Positions 15,001-52,020 of a stretch of 64,000 nt of DNA are shown piece after piece (position 1 is the stretch's first letter; every line of letters starts with the position of its first letter). The DNA lies in assembly GCF_050320075.1 (NCBI RefSeq), contig NZ_CP190018.1. One strand, given 5' to 3'. The stretch comes from Escherichia coli (GTDB lineage: Bacteria > Pseudomonadota > Gammaproteobacteria > Enterobacterales > Enterobacteriaceae). Both the position numbers and the translations under genes were made by a program. The notes beneath the pieces were generated by a model that worked only from the letters and a program-made list of their open reading frames with translations, was not told the origin of the DNA and ran no database searches.

Positions 15001-16911
15001 CATCGCGGCGGCAGGTACCGTCAGACTCCAGGAGCCATCAGCCTGCACGGTAGTGGTAAAACTCTGTCCAGCCAGGGTTACTGTGACGGTTTGTCCTGTC
15101 TCGGCCTGTTGAGTGCTACCGGTAAGGGTCAGTGGCGCACCTTTTTCTGCGCCACTGATAATGTCATCGCCGGAGACGGTGTTAATGGTGATTAACGGAG
15201 AAACACCGACCAGCGTGATTGCTCGAGACGCCGCGCCGGTATTTCCTGCAGTATCTGTCACGGTGACGAAAATCGTATTGGCTCCGCGATCCAGCGTGCG
15301 GGTTACCGCTGGGTCCAGCGCCACATTCCAGCTGCCATCTGCCAGCACAATGCCCGTCAGGACATGAGTGCCCAATTTCACCGTTACCGTATCGCCAGGA
15401 GAAGCACCGCTGACTTGTCCGGAGATGATCTGCGCGACGGCCTGCTCAGCATTATTAAGAATATCGTCGCCCGCTACGGTATTAACACTGACCACGGGTG
15501 CTGAGGTATCTACCGTGAAATTCGCGCTGTGGCTGGTGCTGTTCCCTGCCCGATCGCTGACACTGGCATTGACAGCGTAATTACCCTCCGCCAGCGCCTG
15601 GACTTCCGTGGCAGGCAGCGTCACTTGCCAGGTTCCGTCGCTACCGACGGTTGCTGTATGGCTTTTCCCGTTGACGGTCAGTGTTACGGTTTGCCCCGCT
15701 TCTGCATTCGACGTGCCGCTCAGTACCAGCGCGACGTTATGTTCCGCAGCACTGATGATGTTGTCCTGAGCGATGGTGTTGATGGCAAGCGTTGGCGGTT
15801 GGGTATCGACCGTTAGCAGTTGCACGCCGGTGACGGTATTGCCTGTGGCGTCTTTCCCGCTGACCAGCACTGCCTGATTCCCTTCGCCTAACGCCTGCGC
15901 ATCGGCGGTCGGTACCTGCACGCTCCAGGCACCGTTAGCGCCTACGCTGGTGGTGTAGGTTTTGCCGTTTAGCGTAACGGTGAGTTCTGTTCCCTGTGCC
16001 AGATGACTACTGGTGCCAGAAAGCGTAAACCCGGCGGCCTGTTCGCTGGCGTTAATAATGTTATCGCCTGCGGTGGTGGCAACCTGCACGCTGGCCTGAC
16101 TATTGTCGATGGTTAACGTTATCGAACCGGCGTCAGTGATGGTACTGCCGACGATTTGCACCACTGACCAGGTATGTTCGCCCGCGCTTTGCGTGGGCAA
16201 ATCGACGCTCCAGCGTCCATCGCTACCGACCTGAGTACTGGCGATGGTGTCACCATTGCTGTCTTTAATCTGGATGGTCGCCCCCGCCTGCCCGCTGCCG
16301 CTAAAGGTTGGCGTAGTGTCATCGGTGGTATCGTTGGCGGAAAGAATACCGCGTTGATCGCCCTGATTATCGGTTACCAAAAACGATGGCGTGGCGTTGC
16401 CGGGTTCGGCTGGCGGTGGGTTGTTAACCACTTCAGTTTTTGAGTCATCATCGCCACCGCTTGCCAGTAAAGCGCCAAGCGCGCCGCCACCTACCGCCGC
16501 CCCCGCCAGCCATCCCCACGGGAAAGCCGTCGTCTGGCCGACGATATCAAGGTACGGCGCAATGCTTTCAATTGCGGTGGTCTGAGCGGTCAGCTCCACG
16601 GGCGCTAATCCACCTGCCGCGGTATCGGCAAATGTTACGTGGGTCAGTTGTTGACCATCGACAAACACCAGTTCGGATTGTTCGCTGGTATTTGCCGCTT
16701 GCAGGAAATAACCGTTGCAGCGGATCACCGTGCCGTCCTGCATATAGATCAACAAGTCATTTCCGTCACGAACATAACGCGCAACGGCAGATGCCTGAGC
16801 ATGAACCTGCACCACAGAGGGCTCATAAATGACAACCGTAACGTCGCCAGGATTGATCAGCGTTTGTTTGACGGATGTTTTTCGCGAAATAACATCAATA
16901 ATCAGGCTCAT
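1..16911 (-). CDS. Giant repetitive surface adhesin, probable type I secretion substrate (BapA/LapA-like, Ig-like tandem repeats); 5' end in window, 3' end beyond window start (partial, 5,637 codons in window)
   Basis: ATG at 16911-16909 with AGGAA about 8 nt upstream and an in-frame TAA 11 codons further upstream. Window positions 1-3 are in frame, and no minus-strand ORF ending inside 1-16911 is reported in this frame. My translation of the first ~600 codons gives an N-terminal module (MSLIIDVISRK...), a hydrophobic Gly/Ala stretch, then repeated ~100-aa units of the type VDTxxPxxxINTxAGDxIxxAxE...G.TVTxTLNG...DG.W. Plus-strand ORFs across the region are short low-complexity antisense shadows. 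Confidence 0.8.
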   Translation of the reverse strand, partial: MSLIIDVISRKTSVKQTLINPGDVTVVIYEPSVVQVHAQASAVARYVRDGNDLLIYMQDGTVIRCNGYFLQAANTSEQSELVFVDGQQLTHVTFADTAAGGLAPVELTAQTTAIESIAPYLDIVGQTTAFPWGWLAGAAVGGGALGALLASGGDDDSKTEVVNNPPPAEPGNATPSFLVTDNQGDQRGILSANDTTDDTTPTFSGSGQAGATIQIKDSNGDTIASTQVGSDGRWSVDLPTQSAGEHTWSVVQIVGSTITDAGSITLTIDNSQASVQVATTAGDNIINASEQAAGFTLSGTSSHLAQGTELTVTLNGKTYTTSVGANGAWSVQVPTADAQALGEGNQAVLVSGKDATGNTVTGVQLLTVDTQPPTLAINTIAQDNIISAAEHNVALVLSGTSNAEAGQTVTLTVNGKSHTATVGSDGTWQVTLPATEVQALAEGNYAVNASVSDRAGNSTSHSANFTVDTSAPVVSVNTVAGDDILNNAEQAVAQIISGQVSGASPGDTVTVKLGTHVLTGIVLADGSWNVALDPAVTRTLDRGANTIFVTVTDTAGNTGAASRAITLVGVSPLITINTVSGDDIISGAEKGAPLTLTGSTQQAETGQTVTVTLAGQSFTTTVQADGSWSLTVPAAAMGNLPDGAVAITASVTDLSGNTGNTSRTITVDSQAPALSIDPLTADNIINAAESGQDLPITGTTDAQPGQTVTVTLNGQTYQGVVQPDGTWSVTVPAANVGALADGNATVTASVNDIAGNPTSVSRVALVDATPPVVTINPVATDNVINTPEHTQAQIISGTVTGAQAGDIVTVTLNNVDYTTVVDGSGNWSLGVPASVVSGLVDGSYPINVSVTDRAGNTGSQSLTVTVNTAAPLIGINSIAGDDVINASEKGADLQITGTSDQPVNTAITVTLNGQNYTTTTDASGNWSVTVPASAVTALGQANYTVTAAVTSNIGNSNTASHNVLVDSALPGVTINPVATDDIINAAEAGVAQTISGQVTGAEDGDTVTITLGGNTYTATVGSNFTWSVSVPAADIQALGNGDLTVSASVTNQNGNTGSGTRDITIDANLPGLRVDTVAGDDVVNIIEHGQALVVTGSSSGLAEGTPLTVTINNVEYTTAVQADGSWSVGVTAAQVSTWPAGTVNIAVSGESSAGNSVSITHPVTVDLTPAAIAINTIATDDVINAAEKGADLTLSGTTTNVEPGQTVTVTFGGKNYTASVASDGSWTATLPAADLTALPEGSASAQASVSNINGNSASAVHNYSVDSSAPTIIINTVASDNIVNASEADAGVTVSGSTTAEAGQIVTVTLNSPTVQTYQATVQADGSWSINIPAADLEALTDGSHTLTATVNDKAGNPASTTHNLAVDLTVPVLTINTIAGDDIINAAEHGQALVISGSSTGGEAGDVVTVTLNSKTYTTTLDASGNWSVGVPAADVTALGSGPQTVMATVTDAAGNSDSETHTVTVNLTAPTIGINTIATDDIINATEKGADLQISGTSNQPAGTTITVTLNGQNYTATTDASGNWSTTVPASAVGALGEASYTVTANVTDSAGNSNSASHNVQVNTALPGVTINPVASDDIINAAESGVAQTISGQVTGATAGDTVTVTLGGKTYTATVQGNLSWSVDVPAADIQAIGNGDLTVNASVTNGVGNTGSGSRDITIDANLPGLRVDTVAGDDVVNSIEHGQALVITGSSSGLAAGAALTVVINNVTYGATVLADGTWSLGVPAADVGNWPAGTVNITVSGTNTAGTTTTITHPVTVDLAAVAISINTVSGDDVINAAEKSADLTLSGSTSGVEAGQTVTVTFGGKTYTATVAGDGSWTTTVPAADLSALRDGDATVQASVSTINGNTASATHAYSVDATAPTLAINTIATDDILNAAEAGNPLTISGSSNAEAGQTVTVTLNGVTYTGTVQADGSWSVSVPTADLSNLTASPYTVSASVNDKAGNPATATHGLAVDLTVPVLTINTVSGDDIINAAEHGQALVISGSSTGGEAGDVITVTLNSKTYTTTLDASGNWSVGVPAADVTALGSGPQTITATITDIAGNSDDASRTVTVNLTAPTIGINTIASDDVINATEKSADLQITGTSNQPAGTTITVTLNGQNYTATTDSSGNWSATVPASAVSALGEASYTVTANVTDSAGNSNSASHNVLVNSALPAVTINAVATDDIINAAESGNAQTISGQVTGAAAGDTVTVTLGGNTYTATVQANLSWSVSVPAADIQAIGNGSLTVNASVTNVVGNTGNGSRDITIDANLPGLRVDTVAGDDVINSIEHNQALVITGSSSGLTAGTALTVEINNVTYGATVLADGTWSLGIPAADVSNWPAGTVDITVSGTNSAGTTSTITHPVTVDLAGVAITINTLSGDDVINAVEKGETLVVSGSTSGVEAGQTVTVTFGGKNYTTTVESNGSWTVNVPPADLAALPDGAGNVQASVSNINGNSAQADRAYSVDATAPLVTINTIASDDILNVSEAGAGITISGTTTAQVGQTLTVTLNNNTYQTTVQADGTWSVNVPATDLSGLTASSYTVTATVSDKAGNPASADHALAVDVTAPDLTINTVAGDDIINAIEHGQALVVSGTSTGAAAGDVVTVTLNGKNYTTTLDASGNWTVGIPAADVTALATGSQTITASLSDRAGNSDSTTHNVTVDLSGPTLTISTVSDDDIINSTEKTQDLTISGGSSGLATGTTVTVMLNGLAYSATTDSSGNWSVTVPASAVGALGEAVYQISASATDSAGNNGSTTHTVNVESLLPGVIINTVAGDDIINAAEIAVAQTISGQVTGTAVAGNTVIVTIGGNQYTATVQPDLSWSVSVPANVLQALGNGELTISASVTNSANNTGTATHDIVIDANLPGLRVDTVAGDDVINSIEHTQALVITGSGSGLAAGAALTVVINSVTYGATVLADGTWSVGVPAADVTNWPAGTVNIAVSGTNTAGTTTSISHPVTVDLAAVAITINTLSTDDVINAAEKGSDLQLSGTTSDVEAGQTITVIFGGKSYTTTVAAGGTWGLTIPAADLATLPDGAANVQASVSNVAGNSAQATHAYSVDATAPSVTINTIASDDILNAAEAGSALTISGTSTAEAGQTVTVTLNGVNYSGNVQADGSWSVSVPTGDLANLTASPYTVSAAVSDKAGNPASATHNLTVDLAAPVVTINTVAGDDIINATEHAQAQIISGSATGATTGNTVSVTIGTTTYTTVLDANGNWSIGVPASVISALAQGDVTITATVTDSAGNSGTASHTVTVALGAPVLAINTIAVDDIINATEKGADLAISGSSNQPAGTQITVTLNGQNYTTTADASGNWSVTVPASRVSALGEATYTVTAAATDSDGNSGSASHNVQVNTALPGVTINVVATDDIINAAEAGVDQTISGQVTGATAGDTVTVTLGGATYTATVQANLSWSVDVPAAALQALGNGELTISASVTNSVGNTGNGTREITIDANLPGLRVDTVAGDDVVNIIEHGQALVITGSSSGLATDSNVTLTINGQTYVAAVLADGSWSVGVPAADVSAWPAGTVTITASGSTTAGNPVSVTHPVTVDLTAVAVSINAITADDVINAAEKGAALTLSGSTSGVEAGQTVTVTFGGKTYTASVAANGSWSTSVPAADMAALRNGDASAQASVSNVNGNNATTTHAYSVDASVPTVTINTIAGDDILNAAEAGAALTITGSSTAEAGQTVTVTLNGANYTGTVQTDGSWSISVPPADLSALTASNYTVSAAVSDKAGNPASVNHNLTVDTSVPVVTINTVAGDDVINATEHAQAQIISGSATGAATGSTVTVTIGTNTFTTVLDASGNWSVGVPASVVSALANGTVTINASVTDAAGNSGSATHQVTVNTGLPSITFNAISGDNVLNADEKGQPLTISGSSTGLATGAQVTVTLNGHNYSATTDAAGNWTLTVPVSDLAALGQANYIVSASATSAAGNTASSQANLLVDSGLPGVTINTVAGDDIINAAEAGAAQTISGVVTRAAAGDTVTVTLGGNTYTAQVQADLSWSVSVPAADLQALGNGDLTITASVTNANGNTGSGTRDITIDANLPGLRVDTVAGDDIVNSIEHGQALVITGGSSGLNAGVPLTITINGTAYSATVQADGSWSVGIPAANVSAWPAGALTVEVDGQSSAGNPVGVSHPFTVDLTAVAISISTVASDDVINAAEKGTNLTLSGSTSGIESGQTVTVTFGGKTYTASVAANGSWSVNVPAADLAILPDGAANVQASVSSASGNSASATHAYSVDASAPTLTINTIASDDILNATEAGSPLIISGTSTAETGQTVTVTLNGATYSGNVQADGSWSVSVPPSALGALSASNYTVSATVNDKAGNPGSASHNLAVDTTAPVLTINTVVGDDIINDAEHAQALVISGTSTGGEAGDVVSVVLNGKTYTTTLDASGNWSVGVPAADVAALGSGAQTITASVSDRAGNSDDASRTVTVSLTAPVISINTIAGDDVINATEKGSDLALSGISDQPAGTAITVTLNGQNYSATTDSSGNWSVTVPASAVSALGEASYSVTASVTNAQGNSSTASHNVQVNTALPGVTINPVTTDDIINAAEAGSAQTISGQVTGAAAGSTVTVELGGKTYTATVQADLSWNVSVPAADWQALGNGELTVNASVTNAVGNTGSGTRDITIDASLPGLRVDTVAGDDVVNIIEHSQAQVITGSSSGFAAGTALTVVINNQTYAATVLANGSWSVGVPATDVSNWPAGTLNITVSGANSAGTQTSITHPLTVDLTTVAVSINSITSDDVINAAEKGAALTLSGSTSGVEAGQTVTITFGGKTYTTTVAANGSWSTTVPAVDMATLRDGDASAQVRVTNVNGNSATATHEYSVDSAAPTVTINTIASDNIINASEAAAGVTVSGTSTAETGQTLTVTLNGTNYQTTVQADGSWSLTLPASDLTALANNGYTLTASVSDLAGNPGSASKGVTVDTTAPVISFNTVAGDDVINNVEHTQAQIISGTATGAVAGDRLVVTIAGQQYVTSTDASGNWSVGVPASVISGLADGTVTISATITDSAGNSSTQTHNVQVNTAAVSLSVSTISGDNIINAAEAGSALTLSGTGTNFAAGTVVTVLLNGKGYSATIQSNGSWSVNVPAADVAALSDGTSYTVSASAQDSAGNSATASRSVAVDLTAPVISINTVSTDDRLNAAEQQQPLTLNGSTSAEVGQTVTVTFGGKTYTATVAANGTWALNVPAADLAALGQGAQTITASVNDRAGNPGQTTHALTVDTVAPTVTIATVAGDDIINNAEQLAGQTISGTTTAEVGQTVTVTFNGQSWTATVGSGGSWSVFIPAQQFAGLSDGSYTISATVSDQAGNPGSASRGVTLNGDVPSVTINTFAGDDVVNAAEHGSSLVISGTTTAPVGQTLTLTLNGKTYTTTVQTGGSWSYTLGSVDVTALADGNAYVINASVSNAIGNTGSSNHTITVDLSAPAMGINIDSLQADTGLSSSDFITSVSPVVVNGSLTAALASNETAQISIDGGVTWTTLTVTGTTWRYNDSRTLTDGSYLYQVRVIDAAGNVGATDSQNVVIDTIAPDPAVKTIAINAITTDTGLITNDFVTSDTTLAVSGTLGAALSSGEFAQISIDGGTTWQNLSVSGLTWTYLDG
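300..16200 (-). repeat. Intragenic tandem repeat array: ~300-bp (about 100-aa) Ig-like units organised in ~1.8-kb super-repeats
   Basis: Recurring motifs at regular spacing: ctccagcttaaat near 3050, 4850, 6645, 8440, 10240, 12040 (and a variant near 13840); gttttgccgccaaaggtgacggtgac-like near 1291, 2489, 4276, 6076, 7871, 9671, 11471, 13271. Antisense shadow ORFs (MPPKVTVTVCP...) recur at 2489, 6080, 7874, 9674. Array bounds are approximate. Confidence 0.8.
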
Positions 16912-17019
16912 AATGGCATTCCTGATAAATGGCGCACATCCTTAGCGAGTCCATTTATCTAAATAAGACAAAGGTAATCACTCAACAACGATGCATACCT
17001 GATATTAATAATGGCAGGA

Positions 17020-18375
17020 TTATTTCAAGTCGGGTAAGTCGTTGTATAAGCCCTGTTTAATTCCCGCTAATGGAATAAGGTTATTAACCGCAGCGGCATA
17101 ATTCACTGCGGCGACCCAGCCATCATAATTGGCATTTATTTCAGCCGATTGCGCCTGAAAGACATCTTGCTCGACGGTTAATAGATCATTCAGGCTGCGT
17201 TTACCCAATTTATATTCATTTTGGTAGACATCTCGCGTTCTGTGCGCACTTTCAGATTGCGCTAACCCAGCCTCTTCACGACCCCGTGCGCCTGTCCAGT
17301 TGGCATATGCCACAGACGCTCGTTGCAGCACATCCAGTTTTGCCTGTTCGACCTGCGAGGCAGAGATTTTTTGTTGCCCTTCAGCCTGTTGCACCTGGGC
17401 AGAAACCGCGCCGCCCTGATACAGCGGCGCGTTAACGTTCAGTTGTAGCTGATCATCCCAATACGAGCGGTCGCTGGTCTGGTAGCGCGTTTTGCCCCCC
17501 TGAATACTCAGCGTTGGCCAGTATTGCGCTTTCGTTTTTTCCACGCCGTACTGTGCTGACTGGCGTAAGTTTTCTGCCGCCAGCACCAGCGGGATGGACT
17601 GGTAATCAATATTTTTCAGCGATACCGGCTGCTCGGCTAATTCAGCAGGTGGCGCGGCTATCGCCTCCGGCTGTACGCCAGTGAGCACCGCCAGTTGCGC
17701 TTTGGCGCTTGCCATCTGCGCCTGATATTGCTCCAGCGTTGAGCGCATTCCGGCAATGCGCGTCTGGGCCTGTAATTCATCCGACGACGAGTTCAGGCCA
17801 GCGTTAGCACGCAATGCTGCCATGTTGTAGACGTTTTCCAGCGAGTGAATATTGCGTTGAGCCGCATCGCACAAAGCCTGATAACGACTGACTTCCATAT
17901 AGGCAGTCGCCGTTTTCTCTGCAACATCGGTTAAGGTTGCCATCAATTTAAAGCGGTAGCTGTCACGGGCGGCAGTTTGCAGTTTGATATCGTTGTTAGT
18001 TTTACCAAAGTCATACACCAGCTGTGTCAGGGTTATGCCATACGAAACGTTGTTATCAAGCCTGCCACTGGAGTCCGTTTGTCGGGACGGTCCCGCATTG
18101 CCGGTTAATCCAACGTGCGGATACCAGGCACTTTTGGCTTCATCAATTTGCGCTTCGCCAATACCTATCTGCGCCGCCTGTTGAGTGACGTCGGGATTTC
18201 GCGCAAAGGCGCGTAATATACTTTCCTGTAAAGATAATTGGGCAACTGGCGTTACCGCTGGGGCGTTCGCCCATTGTGGCAGCGGTGCAGCAATTGTAGC
18301 TTCTCCCATCACCATAAAACTTATTAAAAAAATAAACCCATTATTTTTACGGCTTTTAAACTGGAATCGCGCCAT
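17020..18375 (-). CDS. TolC-family outer-membrane efflux/secretion protein (probable T1SS outer-membrane factor)
   Basis: 451-aa ORF with N-terminal signal-peptide-like segment (MARFQFKSRKNNGFIFLISFMVMGEATIA) and coiled-coil-rich Q/A/L composition typical of outer-membrane factor proteins; AGGAAG about 10 nt upstream; same strand and 108 bp upstream of the giant adhesin start. Confidence 0.7.
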   Translation of the reverse strand: MARFQFKSRKNNGFIFLISFMVMGEATIAAPLPQWANAPAVTPVAQLSLQESILRAFARNPDVTQQAAQIGIGEAQIDEAKSAWYPHVGLTGNAGPSRQTDSSGRLDNNVSYGITLTQLVYDFGKTNNDIKLQTAARDSYRFKLMATLTDVAEKTATAYMEVSRYQALCDAAQRNIHSLENVYNMAALRANAGLNSSSDELQAQTRIAGMRSTLEQYQAQMASAKAQLAVLTGVQPEAIAAPPAELAEQPVSLKNIDYQSIPLVLAAENLRQSAQYGVEKTKAQYWPTLSIQGGKTRYQTSDRSYWDDQLQLNVNAPLYQGGAVSAQVQQAEGQQKISASQVEQAKLDVLQRASVAYANWTGARGREEAGLAQSESAHRTRDVYQNEYKLGKRSLNDLLTVEQDVFQAQSAEINANYDGWVAAVNYAAAVNNLIPLAGIKQGLYNDLPDLK

Positions 18376-18680
18376 AGATAAGTCACTTCCTTCCAGGTCA
18401 TTATTTTAACTGGTTTTTATAACTAGTCTCATTTTATTAAGAAGGGTAATAACTTGTGCATCTCTTTTGTCGATCATTGATATTGGCAAAGAAATGCAGC
18501 TAAAAAGCTTATACGTTATTTATTTAGAATACACTACGACTTTTAGATTACCATCATACACATTAAGAATAATCCACGGCAATAAGTGATTAGCATCACA
18601 GATTTATCGCGTATATATCATTTTTTTGTGACTTATTTATTAAAGGAATAAGAAAGGTAATTTGAATTAAAGACAAAGGC

Positions 18681-18703
18681 GCAGTACAGGCTGTACTGCG
18701 CAC
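18681..18703 (-). terminator. Probable rho-independent terminator downstream of ybaT
   Basis: Perfect hairpin gcgcagtaca-ggc-tgtactgcgc followed on the minus strand by a T-rich run (CTTTGTCTTTAATT). Confidence 0.5.
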
Positions 18704-18712
18704 AGAGAGGTG

Positions 18713-20005
18713 TTATACGGTTTTATTGCGCTTCATGACCATTGCCACAATAAGGCTGAGTAAGATTGCACCAATAATCCATATCAACGCACGGCTGCCC
18801 TGGGACCACAGGCTGTAGATAAAGCCAATGATCACCAACAACATCACCAACGTACCAACGATAAGAATCGGCAACAAGGCGTGAATATCATGACGCAGGC
18901 GGATCGCCACCACAAACACCGCCAGATAGCAGATCAAAAAGGTGGCGCTGGCAACGCTGGCGAGTGAGCCTAAATTCAGCGCCGCCGTCATCAGCATAAT
19001 CAGCACCACGACAATGATGTTGCCCCAGGTACTCTGCCGCCACAGGGATTTATTCATTAGCTTCGGCAGTTCGCGTTCGCTGCCCATGTTGTCCATGATG
19101 TTAAACACGGCGAACAGGTTCGCGTTGATGGCTGAAGCCGTCGCCAGTAAAGCGCCGATGACGACGATCACATAACCCACATGCCCGAGCAGCGGAGAAG
19201 CTGCCTGCGCTACGGCGGTATCGGCATATTTTTCTAACTCTAAAGCCGATACATCGCTAAGCAAAACCAGCGCCAGCGAGATATAAAGCAACGTGGTAAC
19301 GCCAATCGCCACCAGAAACGCCCGTGGCATAATGACCTGCGGATCTTTCACTTTATCCGCCGCGTTCGCCATCATGCCAAAGCCCGCATAGGCAAGGAAG
19401 GTTATCCCGATACAGGAGAAGAACGCACCGGAGCTGGGGGGCGCAGAGACAGAAATATGCGCCGGTTGCAGCGACCAGACACCGGCAATAATCAGCAATA
19501 ACAGGATCATCATTTTAATGCCGACGAGGATCACTTCCAGCCGCCCTACCGCATGGTTGCTTAAGGAGTTGAAAAGCGTCATCACCGCAATGATCCCCAA
19601 CGCGTAGAGCAATATAAGGTGCTCCTCCTGGCTGCCTTCATGCAAAAACTGCACGGCATAAGCGCCAAAAGCACGGGCGACCATGGCGATGCTCACCGCC
19701 AGCGTCAACAGGTACAGTAACGAGAGCGCCAGCGAAAAGACGCCGTTGCCTAATCCGCGACGAAAGAAGTCGATAATACCGCCATTGCTGGGATAGCTCG
19801 CCCCCAGGCGCGCATAGGCATAACCGGAAAACATCGCCACAATACCGCCAAATGCAAAGGCGACCCAGGTCGAGGCTTCCATTAGCAACGCAGCCTGCCC
19901 CAGCAGCGCGAAGATCCCCGCCCCCACCATTGCCCCAATACCGATGGAAACGACGTTCCATAGACCGAGGGGTTTGTTACCGTTATTACCTTCCGTGTTC
20001 ATCAT
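18713..20005 (-). CDS. ybaT: APC-family amino acid permease YbaT
   Basis: 430-aa polytopic membrane protein ORF; start codon 2 nt from the glsA stop (operon with glsA). Confidence 0.9.
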   Translation of the reverse strand: MMNTEGNNGNKPLGLWNVVSIGIGAMVGAGIFALLGQAALLMEASTWVAFAFGGIVAMFSGYAYARLGASYPSNGGIIDFFRRGLGNGVFSLALSLLYLLTLAVSIAMVARAFGAYAVQFLHEGSQEEHLILLYALGIIAVMTLFNSLSNHAVGRLEVILVGIKMMILLLLIIAGVWSLQPAHISVSAPPSSGAFFSCIGITFLAYAGFGMMANAADKVKDPQVIMPRAFLVAIGVTTLLYISLALVLLSDVSALELEKYADTAVAQAASPLLGHVGYVIVVIGALLATASAINANLFAVFNIMDNMGSERELPKLMNKSLWRQSTWGNIIVVVLIMLMTAALNLGSLASVASATFLICYLAVFVVAIRLRHDIHALLPILIVGTLVMLLVIIGFIYSLWSQGSRALIWIIGAILLSLIVAMVMKRNKTV

Positions 20006-20007
20006 GA

Positions 20008-20940
20008 TCAGCCCTTAAACACGTTATAGCCGAGTTGCTTAGCGACCGATGCCACCATTTTTTGACCGCGAACACTGTTGCCTTCTTCGTCCAGCGGTGG
20101 TGAGAACGCGGCAATTCCCATCACGCCAGGGACGACCGCCAGAATACCGCCACCTACACCGCTTTTGCCCGGTAAACCAACGCGATACGCCCAGTCACCG
20201 GAGCGACCATACAGCCCTTCCATCATCATTTCAGCCAGAATGTACGGCACGTTGTCGGCCTGAAGAACGCGCTTATGAGTCAGCGGATTCACACCACCCG
20301 CCGCCAGCGTCGCGCCAAGCGTTGCCAGTTCAACAGTATTGATGAGCGTGGAGCACTGACGGGTGTACACGTCACAGGCTTCCATTGCATCACAATAGAG
20401 ATATCCGGCGGAGTACAGCAGCCAGGCAATGGCCCGGTTATGGAAGTTGGTTGTTTGTTCCGACTGGTTGACTTCGTCAGAGAGCGCTACCTGCTCACCA
20501 GCCAGTTGTTGTTGGATATGTAAAATTCGCTGCCAGCGTTGTTCGGCATTTTCAGCGTTAATCAGGCTGGTGGTGGCAATAGCGCCAGCATTTACCAGTG
20601 GCGACAGCGGTTTGCCGCCATGCAACTCTAAGGCGATAACTGAGTTAAAGGGCAATCCGGTCGGGTCAGCGCCAACTTTGTCCTGTACCGCCTGCGGGCC
20701 GACATCTTCTAACGCAAGGGCTAACGTACAGACTTTCGAGATGGATTCCAGCGCAAAACGGTAATCACTATCACCCGCGCGATAGATGTTGCCATCGCAG
20801 GTCACAATAGCCACTGCTGCCAGTTGACCAGGTACATTCGCCAGAAAGGGAATGTAGTCGGCATTTTGTCCGCCGTTAAGTGAGTGAAATTGGGTGTAAG
20901 CCTGATCCACTGCCTGCTGTAATTTGTTTGCATCTAACAT
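20008..20940 (-). CDS. glsA: Glutaminase 1
   Basis: 310-aa ORF, serine-dependent glutaminase family; sits upstream of ybaT on the same strand. Confidence 0.9.
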   Translation of the reverse strand: MLDANKLQQAVDQAYTQFHSLNGGQNADYIPFLANVPGQLAAVAIVTCDGNIYRAGDSDYRFALESISKVCTLALALEDVGPQAVQDKVGADPTGLPFNSVIALELHGGKPLSPLVNAGAIATTSLINAENAEQRWQRILHIQQQLAGEQVALSDEVNQSEQTTNFHNRAIAWLLYSAGYLYCDAMEACDVYTRQCSTLINTVELATLGATLAAGGVNPLTHKRVLQADNVPYILAEMMMEGLYGRSGDWAYRVGLPGKSGVGGGILAVVPGVMGIAAFSPPLDEEGNSVRGQKMVASVAKQLGYNVFKG

Positions 20941-23707: not shown

Positions 23708-23789
23708 TTGGTATTTACTTAATGCGTTTGTGAGATCCAGTTCTTGTTGCGCTCCTTTTATGAGTAATGCCATATAAAGTGACTGGCGC

Positions 23790-23990
23790 AGGGAGCGCGC
23801 AGGGGGCGGCCAATCGCCGCCGCCCCCTGCACCCCCGGGCTCTGGCGAACAAAATCTCCGCTGCGCGGTACCCTCAGCTTATCCCTTGCGGCTACCGGGT
23901 CGGGCGCGAGGTAACATCCCTGTAAAACGCGCCCTCAGCCCACATCCATGTGGGCTGCCCCGGCCTTCAGGGAACGCCTCGGCGATTTTG
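23790..23990. repeat. GC-rich palindromic non-coding element in the copA-ybaP spacer
   Basis: No ORF of 60 aa or more that is not attributable to overlap with copA or ybaP. Contains a 12-bp perfect inverted repeat gcagggggcggc / gccgccccctgc with an 8-nt loop and a second palindrome gcccacat-cc-atgtgggc; GC content well above the flanking sequence. Confidence 0.35.
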
Positions 23991-24135
23991 ACGCCACCAA
24001 CACCGGTGCAGTCTTTCGTTTCAAAGCAAAAACAATTTTTCGATCATATTTAAGCTACCACTGAACAAGCCTCATAACTCCATTTGCGCCATCCCTCCCC
24101 GCGCGCTAGCATGATATTTCACAAAGGGAGGTCGT

Positions 24136-47532: not shown

Positions 47533-50685
<3,153 letters not shown>

Positions 50686-50702
50686 TACAACGTGTAATCA
50701 CA

Positions 50703-50727
50703 AAGGCCGCGCAAGCGGCCTTTTTTA
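50703..50727 (+). terminator. Rho-independent terminator after acrB
   Basis: aggccgc-gcaa-gcggcct hairpin followed by TTTTTTA. Confidence 0.6.
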
Positions 50728-51230
50728 TGCATAACCGACGAACATTAAGGAGTCATTGAACCACCAACTCAGGATCTCATACGAAAACCAGTATTAACCT
50801 CGCATAAAATTCATAAAAAATACTGATTGTTAGTTAATTTATATTAAGTAGCGCTAATAAATTTAATAATCCATAATCATTTAGAGGCTATTCTTAATTA
50901 TTTGCGGTAATTCTTTATTCATTCCTCGGTTATTACGTCATATTCAGAGCAATCCTGGTATTAGTGTCACCAATTTCATCTGGCGATAATCCTGAAATGT
51001 TATGAATAGTTCGAGCAGACTGCTTTTACCTACTGCGGGTTAGTGCTAGTATGAAAAAATGAGTCCTGTCCCGATTCCTTCCTAATTGTAATTTTTCGTA
51101 ATAATGCGATGAAAACCTGCAAAGAGTGGCTTATAGTTAAGCTAACAAACGAGAGGGCAAGTCCAGGTCAGTAAGTTTTTTCCATCCCGAAAGGTGTCCG
51201 TTAGTTCAACCACTAAGAAGGGGACGCGTT

Positions 51231-51849: not shown

Positions 51850-52020
51850 TAAATAATTCGCTTTCGGAGCTATAACCGGCTGTTTATTAAGAATTTTATA
51901 CTTTTTCGCCATGAAGACGTACCCTATGTGATCTTTATCACACAGATGTAATGGGAACGTTCTCTTCACTGACTTTTCGTCTTACTGTGTTGCCGCATTT
52001 TCAGCAACCGGAGGTCAGTA

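Follow-up and report, generated by a model that had tools for sequence, protein, structure and literature searches.

The AT-rich gap downstream of ybaT in Escherichia coli is very probably the known control region of the O-island 28 giant-adhesin secretion operon

We show that the locus in the window (the whole 64-kb stretch of E. coli DNA analysed here) is O-island 28 of E. coli O157:H7, which has been published before, and that the AT-rich gap after ybaT is, with high probability, the already studied promoter and control region of a giant-adhesin secretion operon with the outer-membrane factor (OMF) gene first. Because this gap has already been studied, the observation made in the earlier note is real yet ordinary. 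In O157:H7, others have established a transcription start site (TSS), an active promoter, binding by RstA and dependence on both RpoS and PhoB, and the locus, promoter region, one activator site, start site and stationary-phase, PhoB and RstA control are already in the literature. The elements mapped in O157:H7 have counterparts in the window by sequence identity (Table 1). All experimental evidence on the promoter and its regulation comes from O157:H7, a strain other than that of the window.

Table 1 Features of the ybaT-OMF-siiEA region in window coordinates.
Feature	Position	Strand	Basis
siiEA, 5' part; BapA-related giant adhesin, runs off window start	1..16911	-	Open frame, domains, PGAP
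Gap between OMF and adhesin genes, 108 bp	16912..17019	-	ORF ends
TolC-family type I secretion OMF (Z0608/ecs0540/tolC28/siiCA), first gene of the operon	17020..18375	-	ORF, profiles, PGAP
Internal TSS within OMF gene, weak, stationary phase	17211	-	EDL933 iTSS 581059, mapped onto window
5' UTR, 144 nt	18376..18519	-	From mapped TSS to OMF ATG
Shine-Dalgarno (SD) of OMF gene, GGAAGGAAG	18386..18394	-	Sequence
Minor operon TSS	18501	-	EDL933 Cappable-seq, mapped onto window
Main operon TSS	18519	-	EDL933 Cappable-seq TSS 579751, mapped onto window
-10 hexamer TATTCT of mapped promoter	18526..18531	-	bTSSfinder output, PMC10469882 supplement
-35-like TATGAT	18553..18558	-	21 nt from -10
CRP-like site TGTGATGCTAATCACT, inferred	18585..18600	-	Centred at -73.5 from TSS
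TATATA, -10-like hexamer	18612..18617	-	Exactly 10 nt past Pho-box-like element
Pho-box-like element CTTTAATAAATAAGTCAC, inferred	18628..18645	-	14/18 consensus matches
Published RstA box TAATTCAAATTACC	18656..18669	-	Exact sequence match to PMC12758282
Intrinsic-terminator-like hairpin after ybaT, GCGCAGTACAGCCTGTACTGCGC then CTTTGTCTTT	18679..18701	-	Folding, tail
ybaT, APC-family permease, upstream core gene	18713..20005	-	ORF; PGAP of strain 746

Gene annotation was taken from the PGAP record of E. coli strain 746, to which the window is 100% identical. The locus lies between ybaT and cueR, and its operon runs in the order OMF, siiEA adhesin, ABC transporter and HlyD-type adaptor; in strain 746, siiEA, a T1SS permease/ATPase and an HlyD-family adaptor are found directly downstream of the OMF gene, the transporter genes falling beyond the left edge of the window. 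The EDL933 counterpart (579895-604850) has a matching layout. In O157:H7 the genes are known as Z0608-Z0635 (Z0608, or tolC28, with Z0609/Z0615, Z0634 and Z0635) and, in Sakai, as ecs0540-0544, and the annotations of E. fergusonii and UMN026 name them siiCA to siiDA. The OMF ORF (451 aa) matches TIGR01844 type_I_sec_TolC at 415.9 bits (cutoff 225.15) over residues 46-445 and profile positions 2-412 of 414, a full-length match, and carries two Pfam OEP domains (PF02321; 163.5 bits, cutoff 22). The siiEA frame stays open across all 5637 codons from its ATG at 16911 to the window edge, strain 746 encodes an intact product of 6924 aa, and the N-terminal part of siiEA has matches to BapA_N and Big_13 repeats; an AGGA 8 nt upstream of the ATG agrees with the earlier note that the adhesin has its own SD. 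Placement of the OMF gene first, also pointed out there, recurs beyond this strain in about 25 homologous loci across Enterobacterales, in which GC is 0.30-0.45 over the 300 bp preceding the OMF gene and 0.44-0.60 within it.

The spacer (18376-18712) is 337 bp long, with a GC of 0.32 overall and 0.29 for 18376-18678, the lowest-GC 303-bp stretch of the window (a GC this low is reached in only 0.006% of such stretches). The OMF gene has a GC of 0.51, the adhesin gene one of 0.60, and ybaT and the whole window both have 0.54; the sharp contrast between spacer and adhesin gene described earlier is thus confirmed. The EDL933 spacer is likewise 337 bp, without indels and 97.9% identical, none of the seven differences lying within -45 to +10 of the TSS or in the RstA box. 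An Rfam search of 16500-19000 at E<=1 returned just a chance tmRNA fragment (9.6 bits vs a gathering score of 47), and hence no known RNA family in the spacer or in the 108-bp gap. Small ORFs of 20-40 aa in the spacer are annotated in none of the 958 spacer-bearing genomes.

That the spacer carries the operon promoter is borne out by the published TSS, lacZ fusion activity and RstA binding. Specifically, public EDL933 Cappable-seq data place the main start upstream of 18375, where the earlier note had suggested looking, at window 18519; this TSS (579751) was detected in six of eight conditions, with relative read scores of 0 in exponential LB, 64.7 in stationary LB and 53.0 in stationary minimal medium (PMC10469882 supplement). 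From -45 to +10 around it, EDL933 and the window are identical, and the promoter is the one that BPROM predicted (PMC12758282). The -35 assignment is doubtful, since the -35-like TATGAT is 21 nt away from the -10. Counted from the mapped start, only 144 nt are transcribed ahead of the OMF gene, and the 337-bp leader proposed from the sequence must be shortened accordingly, the upstream ~160 bp being promoter/operator DNA. A predicted fold of the 5' UTR pairs the SD region with CCCUUCUU (dG -35.2 kcal/mol, z = -2.5).

Among the regulators, RstA is tied to a mapped site. The RstA box lies at -294 to -281 from the OMF ATG in the window, in agreement with the published -294 to -280, and at -150 to -137 from the mapped TSS. 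In O157:H7, RstA binding is backed by ChIP-qPCR and EMSA and is lost on removing TAATTCAAATTACC, the tolC28 upstream lacZ fusion is active and RstA-dependent, and all five operon genes fall 3-5 fold in an rstA mutant (PMC12758282). In E. whittamii and Escherichia sp. E1V33, the box lacks conservation in its 3' half. RpoS dependence, reported as 55-fold for Z0608 and 20-fold for Z0609 (PMC2907692), fits the stationary-phase induction, and RpoS may be the sigma factor reading the 18519 promoter. PhoB activation of ecs0540-0544 is attributed by citing papers to Yoshida 2010 (Mol Genet Genomics 284:197). In the window, a Pho-box-like element matches 14 of 18 positions of the Pho-box consensus (P = 0.03 against shuffles) and sits in a block conserved across Escherichia; it may differ from the box mapped by Yoshida 2010. 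Together with the TATATA hexamer beyond it, whose surrounding GATATATA is invariant in the Escherichia alignment (A1), this element could form a candidate PhoB-dependent promoter. No TSS was mapped to this hexamer in the Cappable-seq data, whose conditions left out phosphate-limited medium. Further downstream, a CRP-like site has one mismatch to TGTGA-N6-TCACA, of which about two chance matches are expected per 64 kb; its half-sites are conserved among Escherichia species and the 6-nt spacer between them varies. Neither Pho-like nor CRP-like motifs occur in the scanned homologous loci outside Escherichia, and there is thus no cross-genus support for either motif; both positions are predictions from sequence.

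We propose that these elements work together as follows. Transcription of glsA-ybaT would stop at the hairpin at 18679-18701, and the ~160 bp past it would act as operator and promoter DNA, with the RstA box abutting the terminator tail, the Pho-box-like element and its -10-like hexamer next and the CRP-like site last. RNA polymerase would initiate at 18519, using the -10 TATTCT and a poor -35, at a promoter that is all but inactive in exponential LB and active in stationary phase, and the 144-nt 5' UTR would lead into the OMF gene. The transcript would then most likely run on through the 108-bp gap to include siiEA and the genes of the transporter.

The last step was judged plausible in the earlier note, given that only 108 bp separate the OMF stop from the adhesin ATG, and both the exact distance and the plausibility stand: the gap (102 bp in EDL933) has no terminator-like site in or before it and no significant structure (fold z = -1.6), EDL933 Cappable-seq has no TSS inside it, all five genes respond jointly to rstA deletion, and the literature describes an operon-like PhoB-regulated unit. 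Co-transcription of the OMF and adhesin genes as a single mRNA is therefore the probable reading. Public data answer the checks by start-site mapping and by comparison that the earlier note had proposed. We consider it unlikely that the two genes are instead separate units, the spacer promoter serving mainly the OMF gene and siiEA being read from an internal promoter in the OMF 3' part or the gap. What favors such an arrangement is the internal TSS at 17211, which precedes the siiEA ATG by ~300 nt and has a relative read score in stationary LB of 16.8 (64.7 for the main TSS), a promoter-like match (17048-17019) overlapping the OMF stop codon, and the unequal RpoS dependence of Z0608 and Z0609. 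The internal TSS, along with weak starts just inside siiEA in EDL933 (PMC10469882 supplement), suggests extra transcription units, but an internal promoter for siiEA would supplement read-through from the spacer promoter rather than exclude it.

The hairpin after ybaT bears on how old this arrangement is. The earlier note was right about its presence and 2 nt off in its coordinates (18679-18701, not 18681-18703). It begins 11 nt past the ybaT stop codon, is followed by CTTTGTCTTTAATT, and is GC-rich with a T-rich tail, as in an intrinsic terminator (10-bp stem, dG -16.1 kcal/mol, z = -5.1 vs shuffles); the tail CTTTGTCTTT is interrupted, making terminator efficiency uncertain. Other Escherichia species retain the hairpin, with changes in the loop and a single G-U pair. 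Within E. coli, it is not the conserved core feature it was taken for, being found only in island-bearing genomes: the spacer is present in 958 of 5426 complete genomes, and 4458 of the 5426, including K-12, share one common deletion scar that cuts through the hairpin, leaving just its 5' arm, without the 3' arm and T-tract. Judging by this comparison, the ybaT "terminator" belongs to the island haplotype and is not core sequence. In the scar genomes, ~95 bp from the 3' end of hlyD also survive as a decayed remnant, everything from the hairpin 3' arm up to the remnant being deleted, which marks the K-12-type genomes as deletion derivatives. That the spacer is the edge of a recently inserted mobile island, with the hairpin as conserved core flank, is accordingly very improbable, and we rejected this model on account of the hlyD remnant in K-12. 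It could draw on the presence of the spacer in just 958 genomes, on the listing of the locus as an O-island absent from K-12 and on its framing as acquired in a published paper. Weighing against it, in addition to the remnant, the half hairpin and the single scar common to 4458 genomes, cueR and the hlyD stop codon overlap (ATGA) where the island is present, the ybaT-spacer-OMF-adhesin arrangement occupies the same site in E. whittamii and E1V33, and we saw no integrase, no tRNA gene and no flanking repeats. The island has therefore long occupied the ybaT site, and the horizontal acquisition assumed in the earlier note does not hold in the sense of a recent event, while the 60% GC of the adhesin gene still allows an ancient foreign origin.

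The age of the island is also relevant to whether the AT-rich spacer serves mainly for H-NS nucleation, silencing a horizontally acquired operon, with RpoS, PhoB and RstA chiefly acting as counter-silencers. We regard this as possible, if somewhat less probable than its opposite. The spacer is more AT-rich than its surroundings (GC 0.29 vs 0.54), as H-NS-type promoters are, and is the lowest-GC stretch in the window; the promoter, silent in exponential LB, comes on in stationary phase, expression is strongly RpoS-dependent, and the adhesin gene, at 0.60, has an atypical GC for E. coli. Relief of H-NS repression by sigma-S and by OmpR-family activators is frequent, which also counts in its favor. 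On the other hand, many E. coli promoter regions typically have low GC, the island did not arrive recently, and a literature search on the O-island 28 locus found no H-NS ChIP or hns-mutant data. The curvature analysis proposed in the earlier note yielded nothing beyond AT-richness: by simple proxies, A-tract number (P = 0.34), helical phasing at 10-11 bp (P = 0.14-0.26 for 10-10.5 bp) and the best match to an H-NS motif (8/10, P = 0.61) are all as base composition predicts. Any H-NS role at the spacer would be compatible, as an added layer of control, with the regulated promoter that we favor.

Descriptions of the locus usually present it as an acquired O-island; the comparative evidence indicates that most E. 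coli lost it by a single shared deletion. Specifically, the common K-12-type chromosome (82% of complete genomes) is, from genome comparison, nearly certainly a ~26-kb deletion derivative of the island-bearing state, with the left breakpoint inside the ybaT terminator hairpin and the right one inside hlyD. In EDL933, the native promoter of cueR starts transcription within hlyD (TSS at -160), and K-12-type genomes have no terminator-like site left between ybaT and cueR. Along with the entire T1SS-adhesin operon, the deletion took the terminator and this native promoter. It is conceivable, at slightly less than an even chance, that cueR was thereby fused transcriptionally to glsA-ybaT. If true, such a regulatory consequence would tie expression of a copper regulator to an acid-resistance operon in most E. 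coli and not in island-bearing lineages such as O157:H7.

Overall, the closest relative of the window locus is O-island 28 of O157:H7 itself, which has the same site, gene order and 337-bp spacer and an identical RstA box, -10 hexamer and TSS region. The two differ in that siiEA of EDL933 is split by an internal stop into two "RTX" ORFs, Z0609 and Z0615, whereas siiEA is intact in strain 746; in O157 strain 493/89, the OMF gene is frameshifted too. Several O157 strains carry the locus as pseudogenes, which bears on the reading of published adhesion phenotypes. The E. coli sii gene names derive from Salmonella SPI-4 (siiABCDEF), where a giant Ig-repeat adhesin (SiiE) is likewise clustered with a dedicated OMF, adaptor and ABC transporter. 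In SPI-4, siiA and siiB precede the OMF gene siiC, which is third, and the adhesin gene comes after that for the adaptor; the O-island 28 cluster lacks siiAB homologues and runs OMF, adhesin, ABC, adaptor. A likeness to Salmonella BapA/bapBCD and Pseudomonas LapA/lapEBC is seen in the siiEA N-terminus, with its BapA_N prefix-like domain and Big_13 repeats, and in the membership of the OMF in the type I secretion TolC subfamily. PGAP names the siiEA product "BapA-related", not BapA, and in bapABCD the adhesin gene comes first, unlike O-island 28. Finally, hlyCABD shares an ABC transporter with an HlyD-type adaptor and an AT-rich regulatory region with multiple global regulators. The haemolysin system uses an unlinked housekeeping TolC and exports a pore-forming toxin, whereas the O-island 28 operon has its own OMF gene, in first place, and an adhesin as its substrate.

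The locus is O-island 28 (Z0608, Z0609/Z0615, Z0634 and Z0635; ecs0540-0544 in Sakai). The protein of the outer-membrane factor (OMF) gene belongs to the type I secretion TolC family (TIGR01844, 415.9 bits against a cutoff of 225) and carries two OEP repeats, while the adhesin reading frame continues for 5637 codons without a stop up to the window edge, with BapA_N and Big_13 matches at its N-terminus. E. coli strain 746, among others, matches the region at 100% identity, and its PGAP gene order is TolC-family outer membrane protein, siiEA ('BapA-related adhesin', 6924 aa), T1SS permease/ATPase, HlyD-family adaptor and cueR. The layout in EDL933 is the same, and in island genomes the hlyD stop codon overlaps the cueR ATG (ATGA; cueR 8394-8801 and hlyD 8798-9973 in the island-bearing locus L002). 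In O157:H7 EDL933 (L038 21354-41513) and in O157 strain 493/89, siiEA carries an internal stop and is marked by PGAP as a pseudogene; strain 493/89 also has a frameshifted TolC-family gene (L035 1146-2500). The adhesin gene is interrupted in the serotype that yielded the published adhesion phenotypes.

Features of the ybaT-OMF spacer and its flanking genes (window coordinates)
Feature	Position	Strand	Remarks
glsA	20008-20940	minus	precedes ybaT
ybaT	18713-20005	minus	
Perfect 10-bp hairpin	18679-18701	minus	11 bases past ybaT stop codon
RstA box TAATTCAAATTACC	18656-18669	minus	unchanged; -294 to -281 from ATG
Pho-box-like element CTTTAATAAATAAGTCAC	18628-18645	minus	14/18 consensus positions, P=0.03 vs shuffles
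CRP-like site TGTGA-N6-TCACT	18585-18600	minus	centre -73.5
-10 hexamer TATTCT	18526-18531	minus	
Main TSS	18519	minus	579751 of EDL933 carried over; 5' UTR 144 nt
Minor TSS	18501	minus	579769 of EDL933 carried over
OMF gene	17020-18375	minus	ORF, 451 aa
Adhesin gene	start 16911	minus	AGGA upstream, 8-nt spacing

The earlier note's overall description, namely a hairpin, an AT-rich spacer, the OMF gene first and the adhesin next, was confirmed. The spacer (18376-18712) is 337 bp long and, outside the hairpin, has a GC content of 0.29, the minimum among all 303-bp stretches of the 64-kb window, versus 0.60 in the adhesin gene, 0.51 in the OMF gene and 0.54 in ybaT. The hairpin itself is present (dG -16.1 kcal/mol; z = -5.1 against 200 shuffles) and followed by CTTTGTCTTTAATT, although it had been placed 2 nt too far right. 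The second most AT-rich region of the window (50621-51162, GC 0.31) has a perfect CRP consensus, TGTGATCTTTATCACA, close by (51927-51942). Elsewhere, the copA-ybaP gap (23708-24135) spans ~430 bp with no ORF; in K-12 and EDL933 it is ~700-800 bp and holds ybaQ (HigA-family antitoxin), which appears to be missing from the window strain.

The proposal that a promoter within the AT-rich spacer drives an OMF-first operon is borne out by the published EDL933 start-site map, which already answers this question. Cappable-seq tables assign TSS 579751 to the TolC-family gene, with relative read scores of 64.7 in stationary LB, 53.0 in stationary minimal medium and 0 in exponential LB, and list a minor TSS at 579769 (PMC10469882 supplements). 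Because both spacers are 337 bp long with 0 indels and an identical -45 to +10 region, the main start can be carried over to the window. The suggested -35 of this promoter, 21 nt off, is doubtful. The predicted UTR fold would pair an upstream CCCUUCUU with the Shine-Dalgarno region (z = -2.5). Weak antisense or orphan starts also occur in the spacer at 18562 and 18653 on the plus strand (EDL933 579708 and 579617, minus strand there; PMC10469882). In E. coli ECNB21-M121, an IS1 lies within the last ~65 bp ahead of the OMF start codon (L037 1748-2445), and in SCPM-O-B-8794 a deletion spans the boundary between spacer and OMF gene (L030 ~3990-4160).

Co-transcription of the OMF and adhesin genes, which had been considered plausible, gained support. 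The gap measures exactly 108 bp, as described, and contains no terminator-like site, no significant structure (fold z = -1.6) and no TSS in the EDL933 tables (PMC10469882); the two genes are co-regulated. The adhesin has its own Shine-Dalgarno sequence, as had been noted. A start internal to the OMF gene (window 17211), weaker than the main one, and faint starts just within siiEA are mapped in EDL933 (PMC10469882). A single OMF-adhesin transcript, with the internal start contributing in part, is therefore most likely.

Regulation of this promoter has been addressed experimentally. Activity of a lacZ fusion of the tolC28 upstream region was RstA-dependent, RstA binding was seen by EMSA and ChIP-qPCR and abolished by removal of TAATTCAAATTACC (-294 to -280), all five genes dropped 3-5 fold in an rstA mutant, and extracellular calcium increased expression via RstA (Niu et al. 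2025, PMC12758282). In the window, this box begins 10 nt past the ybaT hairpin. RpoS dependence reached 55-fold for Z0608 and 20-fold for Z0609 (Dong and Schellhorn 2009, PMC2907692).

We aligned the window's spacer with those of two further E. coli (O157 and one more strain) and of Escherichia sp. E1V33 and E. whittamii, and compared it with CRP and Pho-box consensus sequences. The half-sites of the CRP-like site are conserved and its inner spacer varies between species; chance alone would give about 2 matches of such quality in 64 kb. An invariant TATATA lies exactly 10 nt past the Pho-box-like element, the usual distance of a -10-like hexamer from the Pho box at PhoB promoters, making a second promoter possible. 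According to papers citing Yoshida et al. 2010, ecs0540-0544 are activated PhoB-dependently from an upstream promoter. Neither motif was found in homologous loci outside Escherichia, and these readings, drawn from sequence comparison, are best taken as leads.

The AT-rich spacer had been likened to horizontally acquired, H-NS-silenced promoters. Exponential-phase silence and RpoS dependence are compatible with H-NS control; the number of A-tracts in the spacer, helical phasing and the strongest match to the H-NS motif all fall where base composition alone would put them, and a literature search found no H-NS data for O-island 28. A fresh junction is contradicted by E. whittamii and Escherichia sp. 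E1V33: in both, glsA-ybaT is followed by a spacer of about 342-344 bp and then by the OMF and adhesin genes. An OMF gene placed first behind AT-rich DNA is also seen in Enterobacter, Pseudocitrobacter, Lelliottia, Trabulsiella, Rosenbergiella and Budvicia, next to different genes, so the module has at some time passed between genera, yet in E. coli it is no newcomer. By these comparisons, the island is old at the ybaT site. A 2.3-kb contig of a Collinsella MAG (L004) has ~100% identity to the E. coli ybaT-OMF-siiEA junction and so has almost certainly been mis-binned from E. coli; a related enterobacterial OMF fragment sits on a 'Bacillota' MAG contig (L033).

The K-12 state is itself a deletion scar. 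In its 124-bp ybaT-cueR spacer (L003 5870-5993), the 5' arm of the ybaT hairpin, GCGCAGTAC, runs into an hlyD remnant of ~95 bp from the gene's 3' end; this remnant shares ~90% identity with intact hlyD (counterpart L002 8798-8895) and has a 1-bp deletion in the A-run. The ybaT terminator is thus no conserved core feature, being reduced to one arm in K-12. A 261-bp query across this junction matched in one piece in 4458 of the 5426 complete E. coli genomes, so most E. coli share one ~26-kb deletion; the 337-bp spacer was found in 958. With half a hairpin joined to a decayed hlyD remnant left behind, the 'O-island' is ancestral and its absence derived. Past the window's left end, the cueR-ybbJ interval of island-bearing strains (L002 5969-8390) holds extra genes absent there in K-12 (a YadA-family autotransporter adhesin, a lipoprotein and hypothetical proteins).

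This loss may affect cueR. Its EDL933 TSS (L038 604687) lies 160 nt upstream, within hlyD, in DNA absent from K-12, where the ybaT-cueR interval shows neither a terminator-like nor a sigma-70-like site, and an older paper described ybaS-ybaT-cueR as an operon; together these suggest that cueR transcription may differ between island and scar haplotypes. Relative to what has been described for this system, the spacer promoter and OMF-first operon were already known; the only mildly new points are that the K-12 state arose by deletion and that this may influence how cueR is transcribed.
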